Shown here in pieces: positions 7,610 through 22,517 of a stretch of 64,000 nt of DNA. Origin of the DNA: Enterobacterales bacterium (lineage in GTDB: Bacteria; Pseudomonadota; Gammaproteobacteria; Enterobacterales; GCA-2746155); assembly GCA_965250035.1 (NCBI GenBank), contig OZ252282.1, forward strand, positions 2,998,536 through 3,062,535, written 5' to 3'. Below the pieces are notes generated by a model. That model saw only the letters and a program-made list of their open reading frames with translations. It was not told the origin of the DNA and searched no databases. The position numbers were made by a program, and so were the translations under genes. Numbering within the stretch: position 1 is the stretch's first letter; every line of letters starts with the position of its first letter.

Positions 7610-7987
7610 ATGTCAAAGGTTCTTTTTACGCTGTTAATTATCGTCGGATTGATCAATTTTCTTCCTGTCATGGGTGTGATATCTGCCATGAGGCTAGAGG
7701 AAGCCTACAGTATTGAACTCGCTTCGAATGATTTGATTATTCTAATGCGTCATCGAGCATTGTTATTTGGCCTGGTCGGTGGCTTCATAATCTATTCCGC
7801 TTTCAAGCCAATTTACCGATCAGCAGCAATGCTATTTGCCGGTGTCAGTATGGTCGGATTTGTTGCGCTCGCTCATCTGACTGGTAATTTCAATGAGAAC
7901 ATCAATCAAATTATGCTCGTTGATTATGTTGGCATTGTGCTGTTGGGGATTGCAGTTGGAATACGAACGTTTCGTGAACGCAATTAA
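7610..7987 (+). CDS. Hypothetical 4-TM membrane protein, in the same cassette as 7384..7584
   Basis: 125 aa and hydrophobic. A GAGG RBS lies upstream. Confidence 0.55.
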   Translation: MSKVLFTLLIIVGLINFLPVMGVISAMRLEEAYSIELASNDLIILMRHRALLFGLVGGFIIYSAFKPIYRSAAMLFAGVSMVGFVALAHLTGNFNENINQIMLVDYVGIVLLGIAVGIRTFRERN

Positions 7988-8032
7988 CAAGCGTTTGCAG
8001 TCTGGGGTCATGCACTATAGGGGGCATTAGTA

Positions 8033-8443
8033 GTGGCGAAAATATTATTTATTGGCGGTGCTTCAATCTTTGGCGTGTTAGGCACAATCCATTTGGTATA
8101 CACATTCTTCACCAATAAGTTCGACGCGTTTGATCCATCAGTTAAGGTCGCCATGAAAAGCACCTCTCCGGTGCTTACCAGAGAAACGACCATGTGGAAC
8201 GCCTGGATAGGTTTCAATGCAAGCCATAGCCTTGGAGCCATGATATTCGCGGGTGTCTATATCCCTCTCAGCCTGTTTCATTTTGAGATAGTTCGGCAAT
8301 CGATTTGGTTCTCGTATTTACCCGTGGTCGTGGGGGTGTCATATCTGATACTGGCTAGACGCTACTGGTTTAAAATTCCATTTACTGGCATTCTCATTGC
8401 AACAATATGTTTTGCTGGCGGTCTAATCATACTAAACATATAA
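8033..8443 (+). CDS. Hypothetical 4-TM membrane protein (cassette ORF)
   Basis: 136 aa with a GTG start. Confidence 0.55.
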   Translation: MAKILFIGGASIFGVLGTIHLVYTFFTNKFDAFDPSVKVAMKSTSPVLTRETTMWNAWIGFNASHSLGAMIFAGVYIPLSLFHFEIVRQSIWFSYLPVVVGVSYLILARRYWFKIPFTGILIATICFAGGLIILNI

Positions 8444-8458
8444 ATAGATTAAGCACAG

Positions 8459-8545
8459 AAAACGGATGCGTGTGTTATGGTTTTGTACACGTCAATCATT
8501 ACACCCTGTGTCACTAGTGTGTAAGGCTTTAAAACCAGCTTAGGG
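8459..8545 (+). repeat. attC-like recombination site (third family)
   Basis: AAAACGGATGCG...GTAAGGCTTTAAAACCAGCTTAGGG. It shares AACGGATGC and AAGGCTTTAAA with the element at 7291-7381. Confidence 0.5.
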
Positions 8546-8550
8546 ATATC

Positions 8551-8910
8551 ATGATGAATAAAGAACAAATCAACTATGTAGAGTTTCCAGCGTCAGATAT
8601 AGAAGCGACCAAGAATTTTTTCACGACTGTTTTCGGTTGGTCGTTTGAAGATTATGGCCCAGAGTATGCGGCATTCTCTAATCAGGGGTTAGATGGTGGG
8701 TTTTTTAAATCCGATAAGACATCGACAACGGAGACAGGTGGTGCGCTCGTCGTATTTTATAGCGAGGATCTTGAGGATACGCTGAAAAGGGTGCAAGCGG
8801 CTGGTGGGACAATCAGTGTGGATATCTTCTCATTTCCGGGTGGTCGTCGGTTTCATTTCATCGAGCCGAGCGGTAACGAGTTAGCCGTGTGGTCAGATAA
8901 AGGCCTATGA
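8551..8910 (+). CDS. VOC (glyoxalase/bleomycin-resistance/dioxygenase) family protein (cassette ORF)
   Basis: 119 aa. INYVEFPASDIEATKNFFTTVFGW...GNELAVW is a typical single VOC module. Confidence 0.8.
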   Translation: MMNKEQINYVEFPASDIEATKNFFTTVFGWSFEDYGPEYAAFSNQGLDGGFFKSDKTSTTETGGALVVFYSEDLEDTLKRVQAAGGTISVDIFSFPGGRRFHFIEPSGNELAVWSDKGL

Positions 8911-8956
8911 TCGCGCTTTGCTCAGTGATGAGTCTTAAATCTTATCAGGCTGTACA

Positions 8957-9328
8957 ATGAAGCTCTTATACACCGATAGTAGTTTAGAAGCGCTAAATGC
9001 CATGAAGCATCGTTTAGAGCAAAATGGCATTCCAGCCTATATCTCAAATACTGAGGCAGCGAGGAATCTACCTTTTGTCTCCTCGCAACAGGGGTTATGG
9101 GTGTATCTGGATGAACAATACAATGATGCGACAGCTCTGATGAAGGATCCGGATCATGTTGTGCTGAGCGCAGTGGATATCGACGAATTTTACGAAGTCG
9201 CGGATGAGGTGAAAAAAGACCGGTCAACCTTGAATAGTGCCCTCAGAGATATCTTCATCAGGGGTGTCTTGCTATTAGTTGGCATGTTCTTATTCATCAC
9301 GTTATTTGATGCTTATTATGCAACCTAA
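8957..9328 (+). CDS. Hypothetical protein with a DUF2007-like N-terminal domain and a C-terminal TM helix
   Basis: 123 aa. The family assignment is tentative and comes from recall. Confidence 0.45.
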   Translation: MKLLYTDSSLEALNAMKHRLEQNGIPAYISNTEAARNLPFVSSQQGLWVYLDEQYNDATALMKDPDHVVLSAVDIDEFYEVADEVKKDRSTLNSALRDIFIRGVLLLVGMFLFITLFDAYYAT

Positions 9329-9424
9329 TCAGACTGCAATTGGCATTGTGTTTGACAGTTTAGGTGTGCTCCATCCTGAATGACGAGTTACCAAACAATC
9401 AATATTTTTCTACTGGGCAACTAA

Positions 9425-9823
9425 GTGCTGACAGGAATCAATCATATAACGATAGCGGTGAGCGATTTAGAGCGCTCGTTATCATTCTATTCGGAAATAC
9501 TCGGCATGACTGCGCATGTGAAATGGCGCAGAGGCGCGTATCTCACCTTGGGTGATGACTGGTTTTGTCTCACGCTGGATGAAGTTGCTCCCGCCCAAGA
9601 TTACAGCCATATTTCGTTTAACATTTCAGAAGAAGATTTCGATGCATTTTCAGCCGCACTTCGTGAAAACAATATTCGGGAATGGAAAGAAAATACCAGT
9701 GAAGGGAAATCACTGTATCTATTGGATCCCGATGGGCATAAACTTGAGGTGCACTCGGGTAGCCTGTCGTCTCGGCTAGATGAACTTCGCAATCGTCCAT
9801 ATGATGGTTTGGAATGGCTATGA
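9425..9823 (+). CDS. fosA: FosA-family fosfomycin-resistance glutathione transferase homolog
   Basis: 132 aa, starting MLTGINHITIAVSDLERSLSFY. Residues corresponding to FosA metal ligands are H7, H62 and E108. Also present are T9, Y39, W46, C48, the K+-loop region KENTSEGKSLYLLDPDGHKLEVH, and R117. GTG start. Confidence 0.85.
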   Translation: MLTGINHITIAVSDLERSLSFYSEILGMTAHVKWRRGAYLTLGDDWFCLTLDEVAPAQDYSHISFNISEEDFDAFSAALRENNIREWKENTSEGKSLYLLDPDGHKLEVHSGSLSSRLDELRNRPYDGLEWL

Positions 9824-9871
9824 ACAGTTGATCATGGTGGCAGTATGAATGAGATTAGATCGGAGAAATAA

Positions 9872-10237
9872 GTGTATATTCTAGCAGCGATATTACTGTT
9901 CGTTATCGGAATCGCCCATTCCTATCTAGGAGAACGGTATATTCTCATTCGATTGTTTCGCAGAAACGATTTACCGAAAATAATGGGCAGTGAAGATTTT
10001 ACTAAAAACACCCTGCGGTTTGCCTGGCATATCACAACATTGGCCTGGTTTGGTTTTGCAGCCATTCTATTCCATATGGCTAGTGATCAACTCAATGGAA
10101 CCGTCATCGGTAATGTTATTGGGATAACATTTTTATTCCATTTCGCGATTGCAGTCATCGCTTCAAGAGGAAAACACTTATCCTGGCCGGTATTCTTAAC
10201 AATCGGATTGGTCGTGTTGTATGCCTCGAACAGTTAA
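9872..10237 (+). CDS. Hypothetical 4-TM membrane protein
   Basis: 121 aa with a GTG start. An attC-like site follows it. Confidence 0.5.
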   Translation: MYILAAILLFVIGIAHSYLGERYILIRLFRRNDLPKIMGSEDFTKNTLRFAWHITTLAWFGFAAILFHMASDQLNGTVIGNVIGITFLFHFAIAVIASRGKHLSWPVFLTIGLVVLYASNS

Positions 10238-10341
10238 CTCAGTCGTTCGCGTTACATTTAAGTGAAAATATCCTGTAAAAGTGTCAATATGACATCAACA
10301 CATCTCGCCTAGCATAAAAATAATTCAGGAGGATGTTATGT
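10234..10341 (+). repeat. attC-like recombination site
   Basis: TTAACTCAG...GGAGGATGTTATGT. It begins in the stop codon at 10235-10237 and ends with GTTATGT at 10335-10341. Confidence 0.45.
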
Positions 10342-10389
10342 CATCCATAGACGATTATGTCATCCCGGTAGCGGTGGATAAGAAGAACA

Positions 10390-10764
10390 ATGTTTGACCA
10401 TGTTGTATTTGGTGTAAAGGATTATGAGCGCAGTAAGGCGTTCTATCTCCGCGCGTTGAGTCCAATTGGTATTCAGATTTTGGCTGAGGACGAGCTTGGT
10501 ATCGAAATGAGTGCCGATGGCAAGTCTTCACTTTGTATCCGTCGGCAGGTAGAGGACAATCCGGCCCCTTTGCATATCGCGTTCATTGCAGAGAGTCGAG
10601 AGCAGGTTGATCAGTTCCATCGACTCGCACTGGAGACGGGAGCTCGTGATAACGGCGCACCTGGGATACGACCAAATTATACAGGCAGTTATTATGCCGC
10701 TTTTGTCCTAGACCCTGACGGACACAATATAGAGCTGGTGGTTCACGAAGACGAATTGAGTTGA
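10390..10764 (+). CDS. VOC/glyoxalase family protein (cassette ORF)
   Basis: 124 aa. MFDHVVFGVKDYERSKAFY...DPDGHNIELV. Confidence 0.8.
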   Translation: MFDHVVFGVKDYERSKAFYLRALSPIGIQILAEDELGIEMSADGKSSLCIRRQVEDNPAPLHIAFIAESREQVDQFHRLALETGARDNGAPGIRPNYTGSYYAAFVLDPDGHNIELVVHEDELS

Positions 10765-10792
10765 ATTCAATGAGTCGTGAGTTATTGTGATG

Positions 10793-10905
10793 ATTAACCC
10801 TGATAGGTGCGAGCTAAGACTTTATCATGTATGCTCATAAATGCATTCTGCATGAGATCACTCATCTATAATTACATCATTAGATCAGGTAACCGGCGGT
10901 TATGT
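10793..10905 (+). repeat. attC-like recombination site (last recognisable one)
   Basis: GATTAACCCTGATAGG...TAGATCAGGTAACCGGCGGTTATGT. The inverted repeat is AACCCTGAT / ATCAGGTAACC. The GTTATGT core at 10899-10905 contains the ATG at 10902. Confidence 0.5.
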
Positions 10906-11132
10906 TTAATAAGAAAATTCTCAATCTGATACTCATCATCATTCTCATTGTTTGCCTGTGGATCGGTTGGGGCGATTTTGATTTCACTCAATCCGATATG
11001 ACACAACAAGAAATACGTGATTCAATCAGAGAGCACATTCGTCGGGCTATTCAAATTGCTATCCAGTTTGTCATACCCATCGCCATTCTTGGTTATTTCA
11101 TCAAAGAGCTGTTTGGCAAGCGTGATTCATAA
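10902..11132 (+). CDS. Hypothetical small membrane protein (last cassette-like ORF)
   Basis: 76 aa with two TM helices. Its ATG is embedded in a GTTATGT core, and I found no attC-like site downstream. Confidence 0.4.
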   Translation: MFNKKILNLILIIILIVCLWIGWGDFDFTQSDMTQQEIRDSIREHIRRAIQIAIQFVIPIAILGYFIKELFGKRDS

Positions 11133-11183: not shown

Positions 11184-12959
11184 ATGAGTTATGAACTAGT
11201 CACTTTATTTGCCTTGATGAGCGCGGTGCTTGGGATGCTGCTTTGGGGTAAATGGCGCTACGATCTGGTGGCGTTCGTAGCATTAGTCTTGGGTTTGCTG
11301 CTGCAAGTGATCCCGTATGACCAGGCATTTTCAGGTTTTGGTCATCCGGCGGTGATTATCATCGCCCTGGTACTGGTGGTTTCCCGTGCCTTGTCGCAGT
11401 CGGGTGCAATCGAACTCCTGACGGGTCGCATCATCGATGCGGGTCGCAGCCTACCCATGCATATCGCCTCATTAGGGTCCGTGGGCGCGTTGCTCTCCGC
11501 CTTCATGAATAATGTTGCATCGCTGGCAATCTTGATGCCGGTGGATATGCAATCTGCCGCCAAAGCGAAACGTTCACCGGCCTTGTCTCTAATGCCCCTG
11601 TCGTTCGCCACGATTCTGGGTGGGATGGTGACACTGATCGGTACGCCCACCAATATTGTGATTTCGCAATTTCGTGAAACCGCCCTGGGCGAGGCCTACA
11701 GCATGTTTGATTTTGCGCCGGTCGGGCTTGGCGTGGCACTCGTTGGCCTGGCATTTATTTCTTTTGTCGGCTGGCGACTGGTGCCGGCTGAACGCGGTAA
11801 ACATGATGCTGGCAGTGAATTGGCCAACCTGGATGGCTACGTGGTTGAGGTTGGTTTGAGTGAGGGCTCACCGGCGATCGGCCAAACGATAAAACAACTG
11901 AATGGCTTTGCCCAGGAACATGATGTCATCGTTCTGGGACTGGTACGAAAGGGCAAACGGCTTCCGGGTCGGGCACTGAATCAACCGATTAACAAAGGGG
12001 ATTTATTGGTTTTGGAGGCAGCGCCCCAGGCCATCGAGAGTTTTTCTACTGCCTTTAAACTGACCTACTCGCGCTCGAAAAAACACGACGGGGCTCTGGC
12101 GGGAACCATGGAGATGATCGAAGTCGTGGTGAGTGCGGAATCGCGGATCAGCAAACGCTCTGCTTTGGATTTGCGTTTGTTATACCGTCATCAAACCATG
12201 TTGCTCGGCGTCTCGCGCAAGGGTAAGCCATTTCGCGAACGGGTCCGCGAATTAACGATTCTGCCCGGCGATGTATTGTTGCTAATGGGTGAGGAGGAGC
12301 AGCTCAATCTGGTGGTGAAATGGTTAGGCGTGTTGCCTCTGGCTCCGCGTGGCCTGCAAGTCACTCAGTATAAGAAGGCCTGGTTGAGTATCAGCCTGTT
12401 CGCGGCCGCCATTGTGCTGGCCTCGTTAGGGTTGGTTTATTTACCGGTGGCACTCGCTGCCTGCGTGGTGTTGTATTTATTACTCAAAGTGATGACCCTG
12501 TCCCAGGCCTATGATGCGATTCAGGGATCCGTCTTGATTCTGTTAGCCTCCTTAATCCCAATCGCCGTGGCACTCGAAAATGCCGGCGGTACTGAATTAA
12601 TTGCGCAGGGTATTCTCAACCTGACGGCTGGCTGGAGTCCGGTGGCGATCCTGGTGTTATTGATGGTCGTGACCATGACACTATCGGATGTATTAAACAA
12701 TGTCGCCACGGTGCTGGTTGCTGCCCCGGTGGCGATGGATATCGCCGAGCGTTTGCAGGTGAATCCCGATGCCATGCTAATGGGCGTTGCTGTGGCCGCA
12801 TCCTGTGCCTTCCTGACACCCATTGGGCACAAGAATAACACCATCATCATGGGGCCAGGTGGCTATCGCTTCGGTGATTACTGGCGTATGGGCCTGCCAC
12901 TGGAAGTCATCGTGCTGCTCGTCGCCGTGCCGCTTATCCTGATGGTATGGCCGCTATAA
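11184..12959 (+). CDS. SLC13/DASS-family anion permease with two central TrkA-C domains
   Basis: 591 aa. Polytopic N- and C-terminal halves flank a soluble ~200 aa insert with TrkA-C-like repeats (DGYVVEV...GDLLVLEA and EVVVSAES...GDVLLLMG). Confidence 0.85.
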   Translation: MSYELVTLFALMSAVLGMLLWGKWRYDLVAFVALVLGLLLQVIPYDQAFSGFGHPAVIIIALVLVVSRALSQSGAIELLTGRIIDAGRSLPMHIASLGSVGALLSAFMNNVASLAILMPVDMQSAAKAKRSPALSLMPLSFATILGGMVTLIGTPTNIVISQFRETALGEAYSMFDFAPVGLGVALVGLAFISFVGWRLVPAERGKHDAGSELANLDGYVVEVGLSEGSPAIGQTIKQLNGFAQEHDVIVLGLVRKGKRLPGRALNQPINKGDLLVLEAAPQAIESFSTAFKLTYSRSKKHDGALAGTMEMIEVVVSAESRISKRSALDLRLLYRHQTMLLGVSRKGKPFRERVRELTILPGDVLLLMGEEEQLNLVVKWLGVLPLAPRGLQVTQYKKAWLSISLFAAAIVLASLGLVYLPVALAACVVLYLLLKVMTLSQAYDAIQGSVLILLASLIPIAVALENAGGTELIAQGILNLTAGWSPVAILVLLMVVTMTLSDVLNNVATVLVAAPVAMDIAERLQVNPDAMLMGVAVAASCAFLTPIGHKNNTIIMGPGGYRFGDYWRMGLPLEVIVLLVAVPLILMVWPL

Positions 12960-12981: not shown

Positions 12982-13497
12982 ATGACGATGATCCGGACCG
13001 AAACAACCGACGACCACGAGGTGGTACACCAGATAAATCAACGGGCATTTAATGCCGAGGGTGAAGCGCGGATTGTCGCTAATCTACGTAACAACTGCGA
13101 TGGGATTATTTCCCTGGTTGCCCAGTTGGATGATCGGGTCGTGGGTCATATTCTCTTCAGTCCCGTTCGCATTGAAGACGGAGATAAGATACTCCATGGC
13201 ATGGGATTAGCCCCCATGGCCGTTTTGCCGGAATATCAACATCAGGGGATCGGCAAACAACTCATCGAGGAAGGACTCAGCAGGATAAAACAAACGGATT
13301 GTCCTTTTGTCATTGTTCTCGGACACCCGGAATATTATCCCAAATTTGGTTTCCAGCGCGCCGCCGATTATGGGTTAAAGCCCCAGTGGGATGGCATTCC
13401 GGATGAGGTATTCATGTTACTGGTGTTGAACAAGGACGCCCTGACGAACGTGTCGGGCGTCGTGTATTACCGCGATGAATTCAATGATGCGATGTAA
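12982..13497 (+). CDS. GNAT family N-acetyltransferase
   Basis: 171 aa. The QHQGIGKQLIEEGL acetyl-CoA motif and the YYPKFGF tail are YhbS-like. Confidence 0.85.
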   Translation: MTMIRTETTDDHEVVHQINQRAFNAEGEARIVANLRNNCDGIISLVAQLDDRVVGHILFSPVRIEDGDKILHGMGLAPMAVLPEYQHQGIGKQLIEEGLSRIKQTDCPFVIVLGHPEYYPKFGFQRAADYGLKPQWDGIPDEVFMLLVLNKDALTNVSGVVYYRDEFNDAM

Positions 13498-13512
13498 CTA
13501 TCGCCAGTAATA

Positions 13513-13875
13513 TCAGGGCGTACCAAGCCCGACGAATCCAACCATTCGGGTGATTACGCCATCAGCGGACTCAATAAAATACTGGCCGTGCTGAAGCTGT
13601 TCGCTGCCATCCGGTCCTGGGCCACCGAAGGCAATTGTCGCGCGTGTGACATCTGCAGTCGTATCGGCGGACACAACCCTGGCTGACCATCCGGGTGCGT
13701 TCATGCTGAACATGGCGACATAATCAGTCAGCGCCTGCTTGCCAACGATTGTCTCCGGTGTGCGAGGGTCATGGTAAGAAACGGTTTCAGACACGGCACT
13801 GGCAATCTCAGCCGCTCGACGATCAGAATCTTGCAACTCCCAGGCTGCGAAGAATGTTGTGATTGGATCAGACAC
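13513..13875 (-). CDS. NTF2/SnoaL-like fold protein
   Basis: 120 aa. This is the only minus-strand gene in the 11-29.6 kb block. The assignment rests on size and sequence pattern and is moderately confident. Confidence 0.55.
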   Translation of the reverse strand: MSDPITTFFAAWELQDSDRRAAEIASAVSETVSYHDPRTPETIVGKQALTDYVAMFSMNAPGWSARVVSADTTADVTRATIAFGGPGPDGSEQLQHGQYFIESADGVITRMVGFVGLGTP

Positions 13876-14005
13876 GATAATTCCTTTTGTTATTTTTTAA
13901 AATAGTAGCACAGATGCTTGTTCATTTTACGAATGATCAATGGTGTAATATGATCATCACATAAATCCCCCCGTTCATCTTACTACAGGTACAGAGTACG
14001 TTGAT

Positions 14006-14479
14006 ATGAAGACTATTCACATGATGTTTATTGTTGCGCTGACAGCTGTGCTTGGGAACAGCGTCACTGCGTCTGAATTTGAAGAGCCTTTCAATCCCTT
14101 CAAGGATCGAAAAATTTCGGTGCTAGACATTGATGATATGAGTCAGGTTGTCAGAGCCTGTCAGTTACGATCGACCGAGCGGTTATCTTATTGGCCCTTG
14201 ACGAATGACTTTGTGAATCTAATCGATGATTTGATGAATAAAAAGCTCAAGGAAGCGGGCTATAAACCCTCGAATAAGCGCGCCACGCATAAGCAGTACC
14301 TTGGTGTCACGACCGAGACGAATGTTAATCTGGTTTATATTTTTGTCTATCCACAACCGAGTCGTGTGATCGAGAAAGAGGCAGGCAATCCAGTGCTATT
14401 ATGTCGTACAGGCTCAGAGAACCTGATATATGAGTTTGATAAAAATCAATTCCTATTTACGCCAGTCACTTTGGATTAA
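14006..14479 (+). CDS. Hypothetical secreted protein
   Basis: 157 aa with signal-like MKTIHMMFIVALTAVLGNSVTA. Confidence 0.5.
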   Translation: MKTIHMMFIVALTAVLGNSVTASEFEEPFNPFKDRKISVLDIDDMSQVVRACQLRSTERLSYWPLTNDFVNLIDDLMNKKLKEAGYKPSNKRATHKQYLGVTTETNVNLVYIFVYPQPSRVIEKEAGNPVLLCRTGSENLIYEFDKNQFLFTPVTLD

Positions 14480-14515
14480 ATTAACGTTTTCATCCGATAG
14501 AAATGAGGTCTGACC

Positions 14516-15199
14516 ATGTTGATATTGCATATTGCTAACAAAAACTACTCCTCCTGGTCACTGAGGCCCTGGGTACTGATGCAGGAACTGGAGATGCCCT
14601 TCACAGAACAACTGCATGTATTCGGTGACAGCGTGGATTGGGATGAATATCGCAGCATCAATCCTTCGGGCCTGGTTCCGTGCCTGGTTGATGGCGACAA
14701 TACGATTTGGGATTCGCTGGCCATTATGGAGTATCTGGCCGAAAAGTATCCCGCCGTATGGCCGACTGATTCGACTGCCCGGGCCTGGGCGCGTTGTGCC
14801 AGTGCCGAGATGCACTCGGGATTCCCGGCGCTGCGGAATATTTGTTCAATGAACTGTGGACTCAGAGTGAAACTCAATGAAGTACCTCTGGCTTTGGCCC
14901 ACGATATTTCGCGTATTGATGCGCTCTGGCAGGAGGGGCTGGAACGCTTCGGCGGCCCTTATCTGGCAGGAGATTCATTCACCGCAGTCGATGCAATGTA
15001 TGCGCCCGTCGTTTTCCGATTTCTGACCTATGGTACCAGCCTCAGTGCCGCATCAGCGGATTATCTTGAGCGCATGTTAAACAGGCCGTCCATGCAGCTC
15101 TGGTATTCTGACGCCCTGCAGGAACCTTACCGGGACGAGTCCCATGAAATCGATGTCGCCAGCCACGGCACGATCACCGACGACTTTCGTGGCAACTGA
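14516..15199 (+). CDS. Glutathione S-transferase family protein
   Basis: 227 aa. IANKNYSSWSLRPW at the N-terminus and VPCLVDGDNTIWDSLAIMEYL form a thioredoxin-fold GST N-domain. Confidence 0.8.
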   Translation: MLILHIANKNYSSWSLRPWVLMQELEMPFTEQLHVFGDSVDWDEYRSINPSGLVPCLVDGDNTIWDSLAIMEYLAEKYPAVWPTDSTARAWARCASAEMHSGFPALRNICSMNCGLRVKLNEVPLALAHDISRIDALWQEGLERFGGPYLAGDSFTAVDAMYAPVVFRFLTYGTSLSAASADYLERMLNRPSMQLWYSDALQEPYRDESHEIDVASHGTITDDFRGN

Positions 15200-15213
15200 T
15201 CGGCGCCCAATTA

Positions 15214-16080
15214 ATGCAATTCAGAGTTGATGATGTTACTGATCCCAGGGTTGTCGATTTTCTGGCACAACACATTCAGGATATGCTGTCTGTCTCACCA
15301 CCTGAGAGCAAACATGCGTTAGATATCGATGGCCTGAGACAGTCTGATATTACCTTCTGGACTGCGTGGCAGGATGATTTACTGGTCGGTTGTGGTGCAT
15401 TGAAAGAGTTAGATCCGACCCATGGTGAAATTAAATCAATGCGCACCAATGCCGAGTCGCGCAGCAAGGGAGTGGGTTCGCAGATATTGAGTCACCTAAT
15501 GAAGGTGGCGAAACTGAGGGGCTATAATCGATTAAGTTTAGAAACCGGCTCTATGCCGTTTTTTGAACCGGCAAGGAAGTTGTATCGTAAATTTGGCTTT
15601 AGCCATTGTGACCCTTTTGCTGAATATCGACTCGATCCAAACAGCGTTTACATGACGATTGAACTGGCTAACAACTATCGTGGTAAATGCACCTGTGGTG
15701 CCGTGCGGATTGTTCTGTCTATGCCACAGGCCATTGAAAACTATTGTTCCAGAGCCTGTGATTGCGACTTCTGCACCAGGCGCCATATCGAATATATCTC
15801 ACATCCCGACGGTGCCGTCTTGATAGAGGCGAACTACGCCCTCGAAACCATCAAACAGGGTAGCGATCAGGCCGAGTTTCTCGCCTGTTCTGAATGCGAC
15901 GATGTCATTACGGCTTCTTATCCCGAACCGCGCAGGATTGGCTCACTCAATGCGACCTTGCTGGCTGATTATCCTGCCTTACAGGGTGCTGAGGTTGTGT
16001 CACCGAAATTATTGAACGCCGACGACAAGCTGGCGCGTTGGCGAAAGCTATGGATGCCAATCGACGTTATGGGAGAATAG
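15214..16080 (+). CDS. GNAT acetyltransferase fused to a C-terminal GFA-like (Cys-rich, CxCG...CxCxxC) domain
   Basis: 288 aa. The N-terminal ~150 aa carry a GNAT motif (SRSKGVGSQILSHL). The C-terminal part carries GKCTCGAVRIV and CDCDFCTRRH. Confidence 0.7.
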   Translation: MQFRVDDVTDPRVVDFLAQHIQDMLSVSPPESKHALDIDGLRQSDITFWTAWQDDLLVGCGALKELDPTHGEIKSMRTNAESRSKGVGSQILSHLMKVAKLRGYNRLSLETGSMPFFEPARKLYRKFGFSHCDPFAEYRLDPNSVYMTIELANNYRGKCTCGAVRIVLSMPQAIENYCSRACDCDFCTRRHIEYISHPDGAVLIEANYALETIKQGSDQAEFLACSECDDVITASYPEPRRIGSLNATLLADYPALQGAEVVSPKLLNADDKLARWRKLWMPIDVMGE

Positions 16081-16083
16081 GTT

Positions 16084-16512
16084 ATGCAATTCCGACCAGC
16101 GGCCGCAGCAGATATTCGTGCGATTTGTGATCTGCTTAATGAGAATAATCTGCCTTCAAGCGACGTTGCAGATCATCTCGACCACTTAATTGTGGCGGAG
16201 GATCATGACAACCTGATCGCTATGGGCGGCTATGAGGACTGTGGCCAGTACGGGTTAATTCGCTCCTTTGCCGTGCGGCCTGAATACCGTGGTCAACGCC
16301 TGGCTGAGACGATCTTCGCGAAATTGACCGAACAGGCGCGCGCCTCTGGTAAACAGAGATTCTATCTGTTGACCACCACCGCAGACGCTTATTTCAGTCG
16401 TCTGGGATTTGTAGCCTGTCATCGAGACGAGGTGCCTGATGCGATCCGGTCCACGCAACAATTCTCCGATCTCTGTCCTGCTTCTGCCACGGTGATGTGC
16501 CTGGATATATAG
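16084..16512 (+). CDS. ArsN2-type GNAT N-acetyltransferase
   Basis: 142 aa. LIRSFAVRPEYRGQRL, YLLTTTADAYFSRLGF and the C-terminal CPASATVM match the ArsN2 pattern. Confidence 0.75.
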   Translation: MQFRPAAAADIRAICDLLNENNLPSSDVADHLDHLIVAEDHDNLIAMGGYEDCGQYGLIRSFAVRPEYRGQRLAETIFAKLTEQARASGKQRFYLLTTTADAYFSRLGFVACHRDEVPDAIRSTQQFSDLCPASATVMCLDI

Positions 16513-16576
16513 CGCCAATCGCAAGTGAATTATGCTAATGTAAGCGCATTATTCTGATGACAAAGACGCATTCGAT

Positions 16577-17308
16577 ATGAAAAAGGTCGTTATGATTACC
16601 GGCGCCAGCCGCGGCATTGGTGCTGCCACAGCCAGACGGTTGGGCAAAGAGGGCTATGCCGTCTGTGTGAATTATCTCAACAGTGCACAACAGGCTGAGT
16701 CAGTTGTGAATGACATAAGCACCGCAGGCGGGACTGCGTTCGCATGCCAGGCAGATGTGGCTGATCCCGAACAGGTGGCCTCCCTGTTCGAGTCCTGTCG
16801 TCAGGCCCTGGGACCGATTACCCATTTGGTCAATAATGTTGGCATCCTCATGACGCAATCGTCTTTGGTAGACATAGAACTGGCGCGTTTTAACCGCATC
16901 ATGCAGACCAACGTGAACTCCTGTTTTCTCTGCTCGAAGACATTCATACAGCAATGTGATGATCGCGGTGCCATAGTCAATGTCTCATCACTTGCCGCCA
17001 AATCTGGCGCGCCATTCGAATATATCGATTATGCGGCATCCAAGGGTGCGATGGACTCTCTGACCCGGGGCTTGGCACTGGAATTGGCCGAGCGAGGCAT
17101 ACGAGTCAATGGCGTCAGGCCAGGATTTATTACCACAGAGATCCATGCGACGGGTGGTGAGCCGGATCGGGTGGAACGGCTCGCGGGCAATATCCCGCTT
17201 CGGCGCGGTGGCACGGCGGAAGAAGTCGCCCAGGCGATCGCCTGGCTATTATCGGATGAGGCATCCTATGTCACCGGGTCCTTCATTGATATAGCCGGTG
17301 GTCGATGA
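16577..17308 (+). CDS. SDR family oxidoreductase
   Basis: 243 aa with TGASRGIG cofactor motif, NNVG, and a YAASK catalytic motif. Confidence 0.9.
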   Translation: MKKVVMITGASRGIGAATARRLGKEGYAVCVNYLNSAQQAESVVNDISTAGGTAFACQADVADPEQVASLFESCRQALGPITHLVNNVGILMTQSSLVDIELARFNRIMQTNVNSCFLCSKTFIQQCDDRGAIVNVSSLAAKSGAPFEYIDYAASKGAMDSLTRGLALELAERGIRVNGVRPGFITTEIHATGGEPDRVERLAGNIPLRRGGTAEEVAQAIAWLLSDEASYVTGSFIDIAGGR

Positions 17309-17871
17309 AAATTTATGACCAGATAGGCGCCGCCTATCGCCAGTGGCGCTCGGCTGATATCGGCGTGTCGGACATTGAGGGGCTGGTTAAACAGTCTCAG
17401 GCGCGCTCGGTGCTCGACCTGGGGTGCGGCAATGGTTTTCCAATTGCCGAAGCGATTGCGCCTCTGGTCGACTGTTATGTCGGTGTCGACTCCTCGGCAA
17501 CATTACTCAAGGAATTCTCAGACAACATCCCAGACGCTGAGGCGATTCACAGCCCCATCGAGGCAATGGATTTGGCGAGTCGACGGTTTGATTTGGTCTT
17601 TTCATTTGGATGTATTTTTCACTTACAACCCAAGGTGCAACAGCAGGCCCTGAGGTTGGCTGCCAATGCGTTGAACAAGGGGGGCGTGCTCAGTTTTAAT
17701 TCGGGAACCGAGGCAGGCTACACCACGGGACATGTCGGAGGCCATGAACTCGACCACTGGTCCCTGGGCGAGCAGGCTTATGTTGAGTTGCTGACGGAAG
17801 CTGGTTTGCGATATGAGGGCAATCATCTGGGCGCTGGTCAAAACTTGTTTTTCACGTTTAGTCGATCATGA
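17305..17871 (+). CDS. Class I SAM-dependent methyltransferase
   Basis: 188 aa with VLDLGCGNG motif I. A 4-nt ATGA overlap links it to the SDR gene. Confidence 0.8.
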   Translation: MKIYDQIGAAYRQWRSADIGVSDIEGLVKQSQARSVLDLGCGNGFPIAEAIAPLVDCYVGVDSSATLLKEFSDNIPDAEAIHSPIEAMDLASRRFDLVFSFGCIFHLQPKVQQQALRLAANALNKGGVLSFNSGTEAGYTTGHVGGHELDHWSLGEQAYVELLTEAGLRYEGNHLGAGQNLFFTFSRS

Positions 17872-18341
17872 CAATGCAAATCAGAGACGCGCAATTAACT
17901 GAAGCAAAGCGGTTAACGGACATCGCCTTAACTTCGAAGGCCCACTGGGGTTACTCAGAGGTGTTCATGCGAGCCTGTCGCGAGGAATTAACAGTCTCCG
18001 AGGAGAAGCTGACTAGCGAGCACTTTACCTACCGTGTGATTGGGACCGACGATGGCATACAGGGGTTTTATGCACTGGAGCGTATCTCAAGTGAAGTCGT
18101 CGAACTGGAGGCCCTGTTCGTTGTGCCAGAGGCGATTGGTACAGGACTCGGAAAAGCCCTGATGCACCATGCGATCGACACCGCGTGTTCGTCAGGGTTC
18201 GACCGCCTCCTGATTCAGAGCGATCCCCATGCGGATGATTTCTATTCAGCTCAGGGTTGTATTGTGAGCGGTCGGAAGGAATCCGAGAGCATTCCGGGGC
18301 GGTATCTTACTGTTTTTCAATACAAATTAAACAACGCCTGA
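17868..18341 (+). CDS. GNAT family N-acetyltransferase
   Basis: 157 aa with an IGTGLGKALMHH motif. It has a 4-nt overlap with the methyltransferase gene. Confidence 0.75.
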   Translation: MTMQIRDAQLTEAKRLTDIALTSKAHWGYSEVFMRACREELTVSEEKLTSEHFTYRVIGTDDGIQGFYALERISSEVVELEALFVVPEAIGTGLGKALMHHAIDTACSSGFDRLLIQSDPHADDFYSAQGCIVSGRKESESIPGRYLTVFQYKLNNA

Positions 18342-18415
18342 TACGGCATTTATTTGCCTTTAGCTGTTAATCACAGTAAATTGTTTCGCAACAATACTAA
18401 TTACAGTCGTTATCT

Positions 18416-20569
18416 ATGTCCGGTTCCTTCTTCAGTGAGTTAAAACGTCGCAATGTATTCAAGGCGACTGCGGGGTATGTACTTCTCGGCTGGGTTGTAT
18501 TACAGATCGCCGATGTCGTTGTTCCGGCACTGAATTTGCCTGACTGGACTATGACTCTGCTGTTGGTCATTGGTCTGTTTGGTTTACCCTTCGTGATTTT
18601 CTTCTCCTGGGTTTATGAACTGACACCGGATGGCCTCAAGCTGACCAAGGAAGTCGATAGCGCTGAATCTGTCACGCACACAACAGGTAAAAAACTTGAA
18701 TACGTGATTATTGGCTTCTTATCGGTTTCGTTACTCCTGGTCATCGTAAAGCCGAATGTCCTGCCTAACCTGGGGGGAGATGATGAACCGCAGGTGACGA
18801 CCAGCGAAGCAGCTCAACGAGATACCGAAGAGGCGATACCATCCATTGCCGTGTTACCTTTTGCTGATTTCAGTCCTGAAAAAGATCAAGGCTATTTTAG
18901 TGATGGCATCTCGGAAGAAATTCTCAACTTACTGGCAAAAACCAATCGCTTGCGCGTGGCGGCGCGTACCTCATCTTTCGCCTTTAAGGGCGACAATTCC
19001 GATATCCGCGAGATTGGTGAAAAGCTAGAGGTCGAGACGGTGCTCGAAGGCTCGATACGCAAGTCGAACAACACCATTCGGGTTACGGCGCAGTTGATAA
19101 ATGTTGCCGATGGCTATCATATCTGGTCTGAGACCTATGACCGTGAACTGAAAGATGTGTTCGCGATTCAGGATGAGATCTCGACGGCGATTTTAAACTC
19201 TCTGAAGGTCCACCTGCTTGGTGAAGAGCTGAAAGATGGTAGCCATGAGGTCGATCTACAGGCTTATGACAAGTTCCTGATTGCTAATGAGCGATTACAG
19301 AGGAATAGTCGGGACGATCTGTTGTCGGCGATTGAACTGCTTGAAGAAGCGATTGCGATTCAACCCGATTACACCGAGGCTAAAATTAAGCTGGTACTGG
19401 CTGCCTTGCAAATGGAGGGTAAGGCGAATGATCGAGAGGAATTTCTTGAACGAGAGAAGATTACCGACCAATTCGTGACAGTACATTTGGATCCCATCGA
19501 GGCAGAAACTTCGGGTAATTTTGAACTCAATGGTGTGTTAGGTCGTTACCATCAGAAACGTTACCGAAATGAGGTTTCTCAGGCGTACTTGGCCAAGGCA
19601 TTGGAGCTAAATGCCAATTATGCGGATGCGTATCTGTTACGCGCCGATAATCATTTCCAGAATGCTGATTATAAAGCCATGCTGGCGGACCGCGAGAAGG
19701 CCTATAAGCTGGATCCCATGTCGATTGAGATCAGTCGCGAACTCGCCTATGACTACCTGGCTTTCTGGCGACCCGATGATGCCGATAAGATTATCGAGCG
19801 CATGTTTGACCTATTTCCTGACCATCCTACCGCATTCGCCGTTAGGGCGAATAATTACGCATCCCGTGGTATGTATGCTGACGCTGTTTTGGTGCTTGAA
19901 CAGGCAGTGCAGAAAAATCCGGACAATGAACGCTTCAAGAACTTCCTAGCCTGGGGCTATACCTATCTGAATAAGCCTGACAAAGTGGCGAGCATGGATC
20001 GCCACTGGACCGATTATGAAATGGCCATGCGTCTGGGTAATATTGAATTGGGGTTGGAGTTGTTGGCTGAGGGTCTCGCAAGTGACAAACGCGAAGAGTG
20101 GCTCACTCCCGCCGCAGATATGTACATGCTGACAGGCGATATCGACAAACTAAAGTCGACCATCGTTGAATCTATCGCCCTGATGGATAAGCGAAACGTA
20201 CCGTGGGATAAGCGATGCGATACCTACCTGATTGCTGCCTTAAGAATGGTGGATATGAATGATAATATTCAGACCATGATGGATGAGTGTCGCAAGACGA
20301 CCCTGAAACGACTCGAAGCCGGCTTCCTGTGTCCCTGTTCCTGGTACAGACTGGTGTCTTTTGCCATTGTCGATAATCGACCGGAAGATGCCGTGAAGCG
20401 GGCGGTAGAATGGCTGGATAACGGGGACTCGGATCCGAAACTGAAGATCGATCCTTTATTTATTCGACTGCAGGATCATGAGATGTACGACACCTTGCTA
20501 CAACGCAATGATGCCCAGGTAGAACGGCAGATCCGAATCTACGACACACAATCCAGCACCTCTTCCTAA
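18416..20569 (+). CDS. Membrane-anchored TPR-repeat protein
   Basis: 717 aa. The N-terminus RRNVFKATAGYVLLGWVVLQIADVV has 2 TM helices. An IAVLPF...DGISEEI domain follows, then a long helical-repeat region. Confidence 0.75.
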   Translation: MSGSFFSELKRRNVFKATAGYVLLGWVVLQIADVVVPALNLPDWTMTLLLVIGLFGLPFVIFFSWVYELTPDGLKLTKEVDSAESVTHTTGKKLEYVIIGFLSVSLLLVIVKPNVLPNLGGDDEPQVTTSEAAQRDTEEAIPSIAVLPFADFSPEKDQGYFSDGISEEILNLLAKTNRLRVAARTSSFAFKGDNSDIREIGEKLEVETVLEGSIRKSNNTIRVTAQLINVADGYHIWSETYDRELKDVFAIQDEISTAILNSLKVHLLGEELKDGSHEVDLQAYDKFLIANERLQRNSRDDLLSAIELLEEAIAIQPDYTEAKIKLVLAALQMEGKANDREEFLEREKITDQFVTVHLDPIEAETSGNFELNGVLGRYHQKRYRNEVSQAYLAKALELNANYADAYLLRADNHFQNADYKAMLADREKAYKLDPMSIEISRELAYDYLAFWRPDDADKIIERMFDLFPDHPTAFAVRANNYASRGMYADAVLVLEQAVQKNPDNERFKNFLAWGYTYLNKPDKVASMDRHWTDYEMAMRLGNIELGLELLAEGLASDKREEWLTPAADMYMLTGDIDKLKSTIVESIALMDKRNVPWDKRCDTYLIAALRMVDMNDNIQTMMDECRKTTLKRLEAGFLCPCSWYRLVSFAIVDNRPEDAVKRAVEWLDNGDSDPKLKIDPLFIRLQDHEMYDTLLQRNDAQVERQIRIYDTQSSTSS

Positions 20570-20574
20570 GATAG

Positions 20575-20883
20575 ATGTCAGGCAGCTATCCCGACAGAAT
20601 AAAAAGACTTCCGCTGTATGATGGTCGATTCGATGCTTACAAACTCGCTGCAGAAGGTGCTGAGGTCCTGTTTGCCTCTTACCCGGCGGGTACGGTCATT
20701 CCAGTACATAGTCACGATACCGATAATCATGGCGTGATTACTAAAGGTGAATTGTTGCTGACCATGCATGGTGAAACGACACGCATCGGAGTGGGCCAGT
20801 GGTATCATGTACCGGCACATGTTGAGCATGCCGCGCGATTTGATGTCGAAACAGATGAGATAGAATTCTGGTTCCAATCATAA
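20575..20883 (+). CDS. Cupin domain protein
   Basis: 102 aa with HSHDTDNHGVITKGE...VPAHVEHAA cupin motifs. Confidence 0.75.
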   Translation: MSGSYPDRIKRLPLYDGRFDAYKLAAEGAEVLFASYPAGTVIPVHSHDTDNHGVITKGELLLTMHGETTRIGVGQWYHVPAHVEHAARFDVETDEIEFWFQS

Positions 20884-20924
20884 ACCAATACACACGTATT
20901 AATTAACAACGACAAGGAGACATC

Positions 20925-21356
20925 ATGACTCCCGAGATAGCCATTCTGGCACCCGTCGTGGTGTTAGTCTTCTGGTCCATGATTATGTGGTTATGGATGT
21001 ACGCTACCCGAATACCCGCCATCATGAAGGCGAAGATTCACCCCGATCCAAAAATCCCTCGGGGTGAACAGTTGAAACTACTGCCCTATAAGGTGCGCTG
21101 GAAGGCTGATAACTATAACCATCTGATGGAACAGCCAACCGTATTTTACGCGGTGGCGATCGCATTAGCCGTGATGGCAGAGGGCAGCGGTATTAACCTT
21201 TACCTCGCCTGGGCCTATGTCATCCTGCGCATCATTCATAGTATTTTTCAGAGCCTCGTTAACCATATCGGTTACCGTTTTATGTTATTTGTATTATCGA
21301 ATATTCCATTGCTCTGGTTAACGATCAATGCAATGCTCCATGTGTTTCAGGTGTAA
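20925..21356 (+). CDS. MAPEG family membrane protein
   Basis: 143 aa with 4 TM helices. A NHLMEQPTVFY-type motif is present. Confidence 0.65.
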   Translation: MTPEIAILAPVVVLVFWSMIMWLWMYATRIPAIMKAKIHPDPKIPRGEQLKLLPYKVRWKADNYNHLMEQPTVFYAVAIALAVMAEGSGINLYLAWAYVILRIIHSIFQSLVNHIGYRFMLFVLSNIPLLWLTINAMLHVFQV

Positions 21357-21411
21357 TGATTCGAATCCATTGAAGACCAGGCGGCTCATCATCTAACGGA
21401 ACAGAAATGAC

Positions 21412-21858
21412 ATGAGACATCGCGGCTATACCATTACCACTGATCCTTCACAATTTGACTATGATGTCATCCATGCGTTTTTGAATAATAGCTACTGGTC
21501 GCCGGGCATCCCATTGCATACCCTTAAAAAGGCGATCGAGAATTCGCTTAGCTTTGCAGTGCTGAATGCTGATGACGAGACGGTTGGATTCGCACGCATG
21601 ATCACGGATAGGGCGACCTTTGCCTACCTGGCTGACGTGTTCATCATTGAGTCAATGCGTGGCCAGGGATTGAGTAAATGGCTAATGCAAACAATCCAGG
21701 ACCATCCCGATCTTCAGGGTTTGCGTCGGATGGTTTTGATCACACGCGATGCGCATGGCTTGTATGAACAGTATGGCTTCGGCCCGATTGCGCATCCTGA
21801 GCGGATGATGGAAATTGTCAGGCCAGATATTTACCTGTCTAAGGAACCGGAATTATGA
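21412..21858 (+). CDS. GNAT family N-acetyltransferase
   Basis: 148 aa with an MRGQGLSKWLM motif. Confidence 0.8.
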   Translation: MRHRGYTITTDPSQFDYDVIHAFLNNSYWSPGIPLHTLKKAIENSLSFAVLNADDETVGFARMITDRATFAYLADVFIIESMRGQGLSKWLMQTIQDHPDLQGLRRMVLITRDAHGLYEQYGFGPIAHPERMMEIVRPDIYLSKEPEL

Positions 21859-22517
21859 ACCGGCTAATTGATTTAAGTCATACCCTGGAAGATGGCCTGG
21901 TCACTTACAAAGGATTACCCGCGCCGATTATTTGCGACTTCCTCTCCCGTGAGGAGTCGGCCAAACAGTATGAAGATGGCACCTCATTTCATATCGGGAA
22001 GATAGAGCTCTGTTCCAATACTGGCACCTATATTGATTCGCCGTTTCATCGTTATGCCGATGGCAAGGATCTGTCTGAGCTGGAGCTGGAGCAGCTCGCC
22101 GGCTTGGAGGGGATCAAAGTCAGCGTTCCGAACCATGCAGGCGTCATCACCGAGGCGGTGTTTGAAGGACTGGACGTAAAGGGCAAGGCGGTTCTGATTG
22201 AAACCAACTGGTCGCGACACTGGAATACCGAAAGCTACTATGAGAATCATCCTTATTTATCGGAAGGGGCAGCTGTGTTCCTGCGTGATGCGGGTGCATG
22301 CCTGGTGGGCATTGATTCCTATAATATCGATGATATTACGGATGGCCGGCGTCCGGTTCATACGATCCTGTTGGGTGCCGATGTATTGATTGTCGAACAT
22401 ATGACGAATTTGGCGCAAGTCCCGGCCGGGGGATTTAAGTTCTATGCCGTGCCTGTGAAGATCAAGGCATTCGGCACCTTTCCTGTGCGTGCCTTCGTCG
22501 AATTGGCGGACAGCTAG
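21855..22517 (+). CDS. Cyclase family protein (arylformamidase/kynurenine-formamidase-like)
   Basis: 220 aa. NTGTYIDSPFH resembles the HxGTHxDxPxH motif. It has a 4-nt overlap with the upstream GNAT gene. Confidence 0.75.
   Translation: MNRLIDLSHTLEDGLVTYKGLPAPIICDFLSREESAKQYEDGTSFHIGKIELCSNTGTYIDSPFHRYADGKDLSELELEQLAGLEGIKVSVPNHAGVITEAVFEGLDVKGKAVLIETNWSRHWNTESYYENHPYLSEGAAVFLRDAGACLVGIDSYNIDDITDGRRPVHTILLGADVLIVEHMTNLAQVPAGGFKFYAVPVKIKAFGTFPVRAFVELADS

Follow-up and report, generated by a model that had tools for sequence, protein, structure and literature searches.

A FosC2/FosG-like fosfomycin:glutathione transferase homolog, probably a former integron cassette, beyond the decaying end of a chromosomal array

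A homolog of the fosfomycin:glutathione transferases of the FosA superfamily lies just beyond an integron cassette array in a 64,000-nucleotide (nt) stretch of contig OZ252282.1 from an Enterobacterales bacterium, a stretch that is referred to here, over its whole length, as the window. The window opens inside an attC recombination site, which is followed by small plus-strand open reading frames (ORFs) separated by further attC sites, and the homolog, here called fos, is found 1.8 kb past the last attC site that is still recognizable (it ends at 7594). The reading favored here, to which a probability of about 0.7 is attached, is that fos is a FosA-type family gene that was formerly a cassette, that its attC sites have eroded, and that it is now a fixed chromosomal gene beyond the reach of excision by an integrase. 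On this reading fos would once have moved as a cassette and would since have been left stranded where the array decays at its distal end.

Residues 1-131 of the fos product match the NCBIfam Fos_GSH equivalog model (NF000496) at 199 bits (E 3e-59), which passes the curated cut-off of 180 bits, and Pfam assigns the generic Glyoxalase/VOC domain alone. Solved FosA structures in the PDB match the product by sequence with E values from 1e-43 to 1e-39 (1e-43 for FosA of Tn2921, 3e-42 for FosA PA1129), while those of FosB and FosX match more weakly (1e-23 and 1e-13). The GTG start codon directly follows an in-frame TAA, and the N-terminus that it opens, MLTGINHITIAVSDLERS, corresponds to residue 1 of the family. 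The full-length alignment of the 132-residue product with FosA, proposed in an earlier reading of the window made from the sequence alone (the sequence-only reading), is borne out by the Fos_GSH match.

Functional residues were compared in an alignment of FosA (PA1129 and Tn2921), FosA3, FosA5, FosA8, FosL1, FosLL, FosC2, FosG, a FosC3-like protein and 40 genomic homologs, the Mn2+-, K+- and fosfomycin-binding positions of the 132-residue enzymes being those listed in PMC12037509. The Mn2+ ligands are present as H7, H62 and E108 (His7, His64 and Glu110 in PA1129 numbering), and are invariant, gaps aside, across 55 aligned glutathione-type sequences. Both the K+ loop (N90, S92, E93, G94 and S96) and the fosfomycin contacts (T9, Y60, K88, S92, S96, Y98 and R117) are identical to those of FosA, FosC2, FosG and FosC3; the stretch K88-H110 (KENTSEGKSLYLLDPDGHKLEVH) is conserved with FosA, FosC2 and FosG, and Y39, W46 and C48, like T9 and R117, align with their equivalents in the same proteins. 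Y126 is conserved too, as are Y60, K88, Y98 and the residues of the K+ loop. The 17 functional positions besides residue 50 are all identical to FosA, FosC2 and FosG, and the product departs from the at-least-90% consensus of 123 close homologs at two positions alone, where S50 is replaced by T and A64 by S. Of the residues by which glutathione-type enzymes are told apart from FosB, the product keeps Y39, W46 and C48 (position 48 is Ala in FosB1) and has Thr at position 50.

An AlphaFold2 (AF2) model of the product, with a predicted local distance difference test score (pLDDT) of 86.3, shows the VOC fold of paired beta-alpha-beta-beta-beta modules. Foldseek superposes the model on 8r37, 5v3d, 1npb and 1lqk, the FosA structures concerned being those of FosA KP, Tn2921 and PA1129, with TM scores of 0.91-0.93 and root-mean-square deviations of 1.7-2.2 Å. 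That the fos product is a full-length member of the Mn2+/K+-dependent fosfomycin:glutathione transferase family, with an apparently intact active site, is thus well supported by sequence comparison and modeling, from which we also infer enzyme activity and fosfomycin resistance. The sequence-only reading had listed H7, H62, E108, T9, Y39, W46, C48, R117 and the K+-loop stretch and had judged the enzyme catalytically intact by its residues; every one of them aligns with FosA, FosC2 and FosG, and the Fos_GSH score, the matches to FosA structures and the AF2 model support the judgment. If expressed, the protein would form a domain-swapped dimer, with Mn2+ bound by H7, H62 and E108 and K+ by the N90-S96 loop. 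Fosfomycin would be held by the contact residues named above, and glutathione would be added to C1 of the fosfomycin epoxide, inactivating the drug as FosA does.

A different view holds that fos looks intact and is nevertheless compromised or repurposed, whether decaying, barely translated, or encoding a VOC enzyme with another substrate. This seems quite unlikely. The frame is uninterrupted, of family length and without lesions, the metal, K+ and substrate residues are all kept, and the Fos_GSH cut-off is passed. Comparison with the closest full-length match, the metagenomic protein P0002, gives a ratio of nonsynonymous to synonymous differences (pN/pS) of 0.20, with pN 0.16 and pS 0.78 (synonymous sites being saturated), and a ratio of 0.24 for the 26 N-terminal codons missing from the database gene call. 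Several features nevertheless pull toward a compromised gene and, in most cases, also count against the favored reading. Position 50 is near-invariant, with Ser in 118 of the 123 homologs, and is Thr in the fos product; Ser50 presumably has a role in glutathione handling in FosA, and a literature search on Ser50 found no confirmation. Natural homologs do tolerate Ala (4) and Cys (1) at this position. The product also scores below the cut-offs of all named Fos subfamilies. No Shine-Dalgarno sequence precedes fos, just "CTGGGCAACTAA" standing before the GTG, whereas in the cassette-borne relatives a GGAGG-type box lies 6-9 nt before the start, and a consensus scan of the 96-nt upstream spacer found no sigma-70-like promoter. 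Finally, activity is not guaranteed by similarity of this order, because overexpression of a FosC2-like ORF of Proteus vulgaris, with 58.8% identity to FosC2, conferred no resistance (PMC13148022). FosC3, 59% identical to FosC2, raised the fosfomycin minimum inhibitory concentration (MIC) of Escherichia coli 128-fold (PMC12037509).

The start codon itself was considered as a defect and ruled out, since fosC2, fosG and 23 other homolog loci begin with GTG or TTG (19 GTG and 6 TTG, 25/84, among the homolog loci compared). The translation signals of fos are weak, a GTG that no Shine-Dalgarno sequence precedes, and no promoter of its own is predicted, which leaves the level of expression uncertain. 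A mini-ORF runs directly up to fos (Table 1), and it is speculation that its translation is coupled to that of fos. A 6-bp hairpin followed by a T-rich run at 9697-9715, terminator-like on both strands, falls inside fos at the K+-loop codons; it is probably a chance occurrence, the scan having found 2 such sites against 1.1 expected.

The recorded gene call at the fos position, P0001, is 100% identical over 80% of the query and was made on two loci (L001 and L094). Its product scores 149.4 bits against the Fos_GSH model and fails the cut-off. An exact-sequence look-up of the 132-residue product returned no record, the collection holding the 105-residue call alone. Protein-based resistance screens would therefore miss fos, because the recorded call falls below the Fos_GSH cut-off. 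Many genes of the family start with GTG or TTG, and the choice of an internal ATG by the gene caller here exposes a blind spot in annotation.

By its sequence, the fos product is a distinct lineage among the short-loop, 132-residue glutathione-type Fos enzymes, which include forms like FosC2, FosG, FosC3 and FosK. It is 64.4% identical to FosC2, 63.6% to FosG and 57.6% to the FosC3-like protein of Aeromonas caviae, 51-53% to FosA PA1129, FosA of Tn2921, FosA3 and FosA5, 48.5% to FosA8 and 38.9% to FosB1. The best-scoring named subfamily models are FosC2 (NF000074; 197.6 bits against a cut-off of 250), FosG (NF000467; 191.1 against 240) and the FosG/FosC2-related fos-Vibrio model (NF000124; 179.1 against 250), and the product falls below each cut-off; for comparison, FosC2 and FosG score 312 and 282 bits with their own models. 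Among 5.8 billion clustered proteins the closest full-length match is P0002, at 74% identity, and a search of plasmids found no mobile fos gene more than 63.6% identical to the fos product. In a neighbor-joining tree the product is sister to P0002 in 185 of 200 bootstraps, and the pair adjoins the clade with FosG and FosC2. One of these two enzymes is the nearest named reference in 158/200 bootstraps and the FosA/FosL clade excludes the product in 150/200, while its monophyly with the FosC2/FosG clade is weak (56/200). Thus the product groups beside FosC2 and FosG, and not with the non-resistance VOC paralogs that had been named as the alternative placement.

The former-cassette part of the favored reading begins with the array. 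Its attC sites were recognized through R'' (..TAACMAG) and R' (GTTRRRY) boxes and are of two types, of about 60 and about 100 nt. A hand-set structure of the short type is in register, with 64% of cells paired as compared to 30-47% when the partner is slid, and shows compensatory changes, while RNAalifold found no consensus structure in the short attC alignment. Covariance models were built from the array's own sites, R1 from seven short and R2 from four long ones, which score 50-61 bits (R1) and 80-106 bits (R2) as training sites of the models. The held-out thirteenth site is recovered by R1 (Table 1); it is partly decayed, sits at a compositional boundary and has lost its folding potential (z +0.68). 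Beyond it, R1 found no other convincing new site over 64 kb.

Between this site and the first core gene lies a tail block of small co-oriented ORFs that includes fos. The G+C content at third codon positions (GC3) is 0.24-0.37 for the ORFs at 234-7584, 0.42-0.49 for the eight tail ORFs (0.43 for fos), and 0.51-0.62, with one ORF at 0.48, from 11184 onward, and the first of these steps coincides with the last recognizable attC site. The sequence-only reading had set fos inside the cassette array. It lies instead past both that last site and a decayed one at 8438-8535, in a region of different composition. The decayed site is the exact spacer between two ORFs and is the best non-training match on the plus strand by R2 and also by nhmmer. 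Immediately upstream of fos, a candidate attC vestige (9323-9366) has a bottom strand that folds with a z of -1.67, within the range of true attC sites. On the other side, R1, R2 and nhmmer found no attC match in the spacer 3' of fos or beyond, and the fold of 9815-9871, with a minimum free energy of -0.3 kcal/mol and a z of +1.07, has no hairpin potential; with the array-derived models the fos flanks reach a maximum of 6.1 bits. The earlier remark that attC-like sites flanking fos are poorly defined was, if anything, an understatement. Toward fos, then, attC scores run from 50-105 bits to 28, 14, 6 and nothing, and GC3 rises meanwhile. Exact R'' and R' remnants at tail ORF boundaries (Table 1) were also counted for the former-cassette reading, the expected number of GTTATGT motifs in the tail spacers being about 0.07 as estimated from the background rate outside the array. 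Constrained folding of AAC...GTT pairs in the tail spacers was tried and set aside, its discrimination being poor even for true sites, and it is not used as evidence.

An alternative history, in which fos was never a cassette and belongs, as an ordinary accessory gene of the chromosome, to a variable field of small genes adjoining an integron array, is rather unlikely. It draws first on the homologs: among 84 homolog loci, cassette boundaries are present on both sides in 9 and on neither side in 66, because of which an origin outside any cassette is possible for fos and most chromosomal Fos_GSH genes are not cassettes. At the P0002 locus (L083) the spacers are tight and neither R1 nor R2 finds an attC at E <= 1. 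In a related genome (L096), the transporter that follows the tail block is flanked on both sides by different compact, co-oriented small genes; at E <= 1 R1 has no match in that region, and the matches of R2 are all weak (14-17 bits, E 0.11-0.42). Moreover, the composition of the tail is unlike that of the attC-bearing cassettes. Together with the count of homolog loci, further points weigh against a cassette past for fos. The vestige at 9323-9366 is a weak match (6.1 bits with R1, E 0.67 in 621 nt) that is not significant alone. It has AAT in place of the AAC core, and would put the cassette boundary 66 nt upstream of fos as compared to about 22 nt in cassette-borne homologs. Neither integrase nor attI was seen, the window starting within an attC site and public contigs at window positions 428 and 6025, inside the array. 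Near fos the case for a former cassette is weak, since the vestiges there are individually non-significant. What tells against a history without cassettes is the decayed long-type attC at 8438-8535, the exact R'' and R' motifs, the monotonic drop of attC scores toward fos, and the many true cassettes within the FosC2/FosG-like group. In addition, the flanks of fos in the window and at L083 show no similarity to each other, which was counted for the former-cassette reading as a sign that the gene moved as a single unit.

True cassettes of this group show what an active arrangement looks like. In fosC2 the gene stands directly downstream of intI1; others occur in plasmid integrons of Shewanella and Vibrio gangliei, and in chromosomal arrays of Vibrio coralliilyticus, Pseudoalteromonas luteoviolacea, Aliidiomarina shirensis, Halomonas elongata and a Porticoccaceae metagenome-assembled genome (MAG). 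Their architecture consists of an R' core (GCGTTATGTT or a sequence close to it), about 12 nt with a GGAGG-type box (weaker in fosG), GTG...TAA, and ACATAACAA, within a few nt of the stop codon, with the remainder of the attC after it. In nine cassette-borne homologs a GTTA-type R' core precedes the start by at most 40 nt and an xTAACA-type R'' core lies at the stop, and those inspected carry a GGAGG-type ribosome-binding site; window fos has neither cores nor box. The earlier statement that mobile fos genes travel as integron cassettes holds, for fosC2 in a class 1 integron, for the plasmid integrons and in the literature (PMC11721406). In a gammaproteobacterial MAG (L003 6330-6400 and 7876-7946) there are apparently two fos paralogs 1.5 kb apart, their 3' ends 83% identical, and Vibrio sp. 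HI00D65 (L028 6041-6742 and 10130-10828) has a duplication of the fos region of about 700 nt, 95-98% identical, with the copies 4.1 kb apart.

Measured by these examples, it is very improbable that fos is itself a live, mobilizable cassette and the progenitor or reservoir of a clinically mobile fos gene. The position of fos among small co-oriented ORFs that follow 13 attC sites, the same-group cassettes in Vibrio, Pseudoalteromonas, Aliidiomarina and Halomonas arrays and in plasmid integrons, and the 44-nt attC-like inverted repeat upstream of the gene would fit such a role. Set against them are the lack of a 3' attC by covariance model, hidden Markov model or folding, the low score, short length and altered core of the upstream candidate, and the distance of the best plasmid-borne and database matches. 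As it stands fos would not be excisable by an integrase, because it has no usable attC. The suggestion that a chromosomal array carrying fos could be a progenitor or reservoir does not survive these results, with no mobile fos gene above 63.6% identity and no database protein above 74%. By sequence, fos is an environmental gene of an ordinary kind, related to known resistance genes but neither mobile nor the progenitor of any known mobile fos. For fosC2, Aliidiomarina shirensis has been proposed as the source (Ortiz de la Rosa 2022, as cited in PMC10352792). The proteins encoded by A. shirensis (L004 6001-6396) and by fosC2 on pIMP-HB623 (L002 3001-3399) are 97% identical, and their 5' untranslated regions (UTRs; gttatgttcgctgaggagagtcaGTG) and attC sites are nearly identical. 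This match reproduces the published proposal, and the idea that chromosomal arrays feed mobile fos genes is likewise already published.

Carried further, the former-cassette reading suggests, tentatively and at less than even odds, that the 3.5-kb tail records the stepwise fossilization of integron cassettes into the chromosome. On this proposal attC sites would decay with distance as GC3 climbs from about 0.3 to 0.45, toward the host value of about 0.6, and a resistance-type cassette would have been domesticated as a fixed gene, maybe translated through the 14-codon upstream ORF. The 20 kb or more on both sides of the SLC13 transporter may then be a field of former cassettes devoid of attC sites, with members (VOC, DUF2007, GNAT and methyltransferase genes) that would have been reordered between related genomes while keeping their orientation.

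Table 1. Features of the window discussed in the text (window coordinates)
Feature	Position	Strand	Remarks
fos ORF	9425..9823	+	132 amino acids (aa), GTG start, TGA stop; FosA-superfamily fosfomycin:glutathione transferase homolog, short-loop FosC2/FosG-like group
Mini-ORF MTSYQTINIFLLGN	9380..9424	+	14 codons, in the fos frame; TAA stop abuts the fos GTG
Recorded gene call P0001	9506..9823	+	105 aa from internal ATG (Met28), without H7 and T9
attC array, 12 sites (first six)	591..6750 (whole array)	+	591-655, 921-978, 1500-1561, 1921-1981, 2641-2740, 3304-3402
attC array (remaining six)		+	4094-4226 (by eye only), 4620-4720, 5129-5189, 5426-5486, 5880-5940, 6653-6750
Last recognizable attC (13th), partly decayed	7533..7594	+	held out; R1 28.4 bits, E 4e-4, whole window
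Tail block	7610..11132	+	eight small co-oriented ORFs including fos, between recognizable array and first core gene
Exact R'' consensus TAACAAG	7985..7991	+	overlaps stop codon of ORF 7610-7987
Decayed long-type attC	8438..8535	+	R2 13.8 bits, full-length alignment, E 0.34 over 60 kb
attC vestige candidate	9323..9366	+	44 nt, ACCTAATCAGA-[25 nt]-TTTAGGTG, overlaps upstream ORF stop codon
Spacer 3' of fos	9824..9871	+	48 nt; no attC
Exact R' consensus GTTATGT	10335..10341	+	49 nt upstream of ORF 10390
Exact R' consensus GTTATGT	10899..10905	+	overlaps ATG of ORF 10902
SLC13/CitMHS transporter	11184..12959	+	first gene with core-like composition; 86-91% conserved in relatives

Further observations concern the array and its attC sites. 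The long type (2641-2740, 3304-3402, 4620-4720 and 6653-6750) shares the core TGTCACA..TTTTG...CAAAAA..TCGCCACAC, and on its top strand RNAalifold predicts a set of three hairpins in place of a single long imperfect one. Between ORFs 5961-6239 and 6253-6765 there are just 13 nt and no attC, and the two appear to share one cassette ending at the attC site 6653-6750, which overlaps the 3' end of the second ORF. Some 10 kb beyond the array, R1 gives an attC-like match on the plus strand at 21113-21178 (18.8 bits, E 0.02-0.07; CTATAACC...CGTGATGGC), inside ORF 20925-21356 and with several weak nhmmer and R2 matches around 20750-21360; it could be chance or a very old remnant.

The tail holds three genes of the VOC/glyoxalase superfamily within 2.2 kb (8551-8910, 9425-9823 and 10390-10764), the first of which encodes a product that also matches a bleomycin-resistance-like N-terminal domain and has a 70%-identical homolog directly downstream of the L096 transporter. 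Nearly all ORFs of at least 90 aa in window positions 1-29635 are on the plus strand. From 12982 to 22517 there follow small accessory genes (GNATs, GST, SnoaL, SDR and methyltransferase) with operon-tight spacers and host-like GC3, whose L096 homologs are 51-66% identical and flank the SLC13 transporter on either side, in another order and with unchanged orientation. Between L096 and the window, SpoT is 89% and the SLC13 transporter 86% identical. Homologs of the two genes just upstream of fos are on the other side of the transporter in L096, and a GNAT/GNAT/methyltransferase set is reversed in order there with its orientation kept. The SLC13 transporter gene has a GC3 of 0.62 in the window and 0.40 in L096 (10001-11776), where the genes examined have 0.26-0.46; for genomes so closely related this is a large shift in composition. 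Two Logan contigs match the window exactly over 13.6-13.8 kb. SpoT of the host has matches of 100% identity in one NCBI contig and two Logan assemblies alone, and is otherwise up to 90% identical to MAG proteins and about 65% or less to named matches, Kangiella among them, and by this protein the host is possibly related to the Kangiella group.

The direct risk posed by fos is low, as it lacks both a usable attC and any close relative among mobile genes, and its host is an environmental gammaproteobacterium of a kind that has rarely been sequenced. What it adds to the environmental pool of FosC2/FosG-like genes is one divergent lineage, at most 64% identical to any named Fos protein, and the gradient of attC decay that leads to it offers a small, clean example of cassettes becoming fixed chromosomal genes.

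Each of the known systems resembles window fos in some respects and departs from it in others. P0002, on ENA contig k141_4581006, is likewise encoded among closely packed small genes of one orientation that have no attC sites, but has an ATG start and S50 where window fos has a GTG start and T50, and its neighboring genes are wholly different. FosC2, from a class 1 integron cassette on plasmids of E. coli and Enterobacter, shares with window fos the length of 132 aa, the short dimer-interface loop, the GTG start and identical Mn2+, K+ and fosfomycin residues at 63.6-64.4% identity. The fosC2 gene is preceded, however, by an R' core and a 22-nt 5' UTR with GAGGAG, and its complete attC starts 5 nt past the stop codon; window fos lacks all of these. 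Similarly, FosG, in the copy examined on an IncC plasmid, has the length, active site and GTG start of window fos at 62.9-63.6% identity, and its gene is followed by a recognizable attC that window fos does not have. FosC3 of Aeromonas caviae is chromosomal, belongs to the FosC2/FosG neighborhood and has no adjoining mobile element, as is the case for window fos, with which it shares 7H, 62H, 108E, 9T, 60Y, 88K, 92S, 96S, 98Y and 117R (PMC12037509). FosC3 lies in a conserved core-genome context and its MIC and kinetics have been measured, whereas window fos, known from sequence, lies in a variable tail beside an integron array. The FosA enzymes of PA1129 and Tn2921 have the same fold and the same metal and K+ sites as window fos, and presumably the same chemistry, while their dimer-interface loop is longer than that of window fos, by 2 residues in PA1129 and 5 in Tn2921 (PMC12037509).

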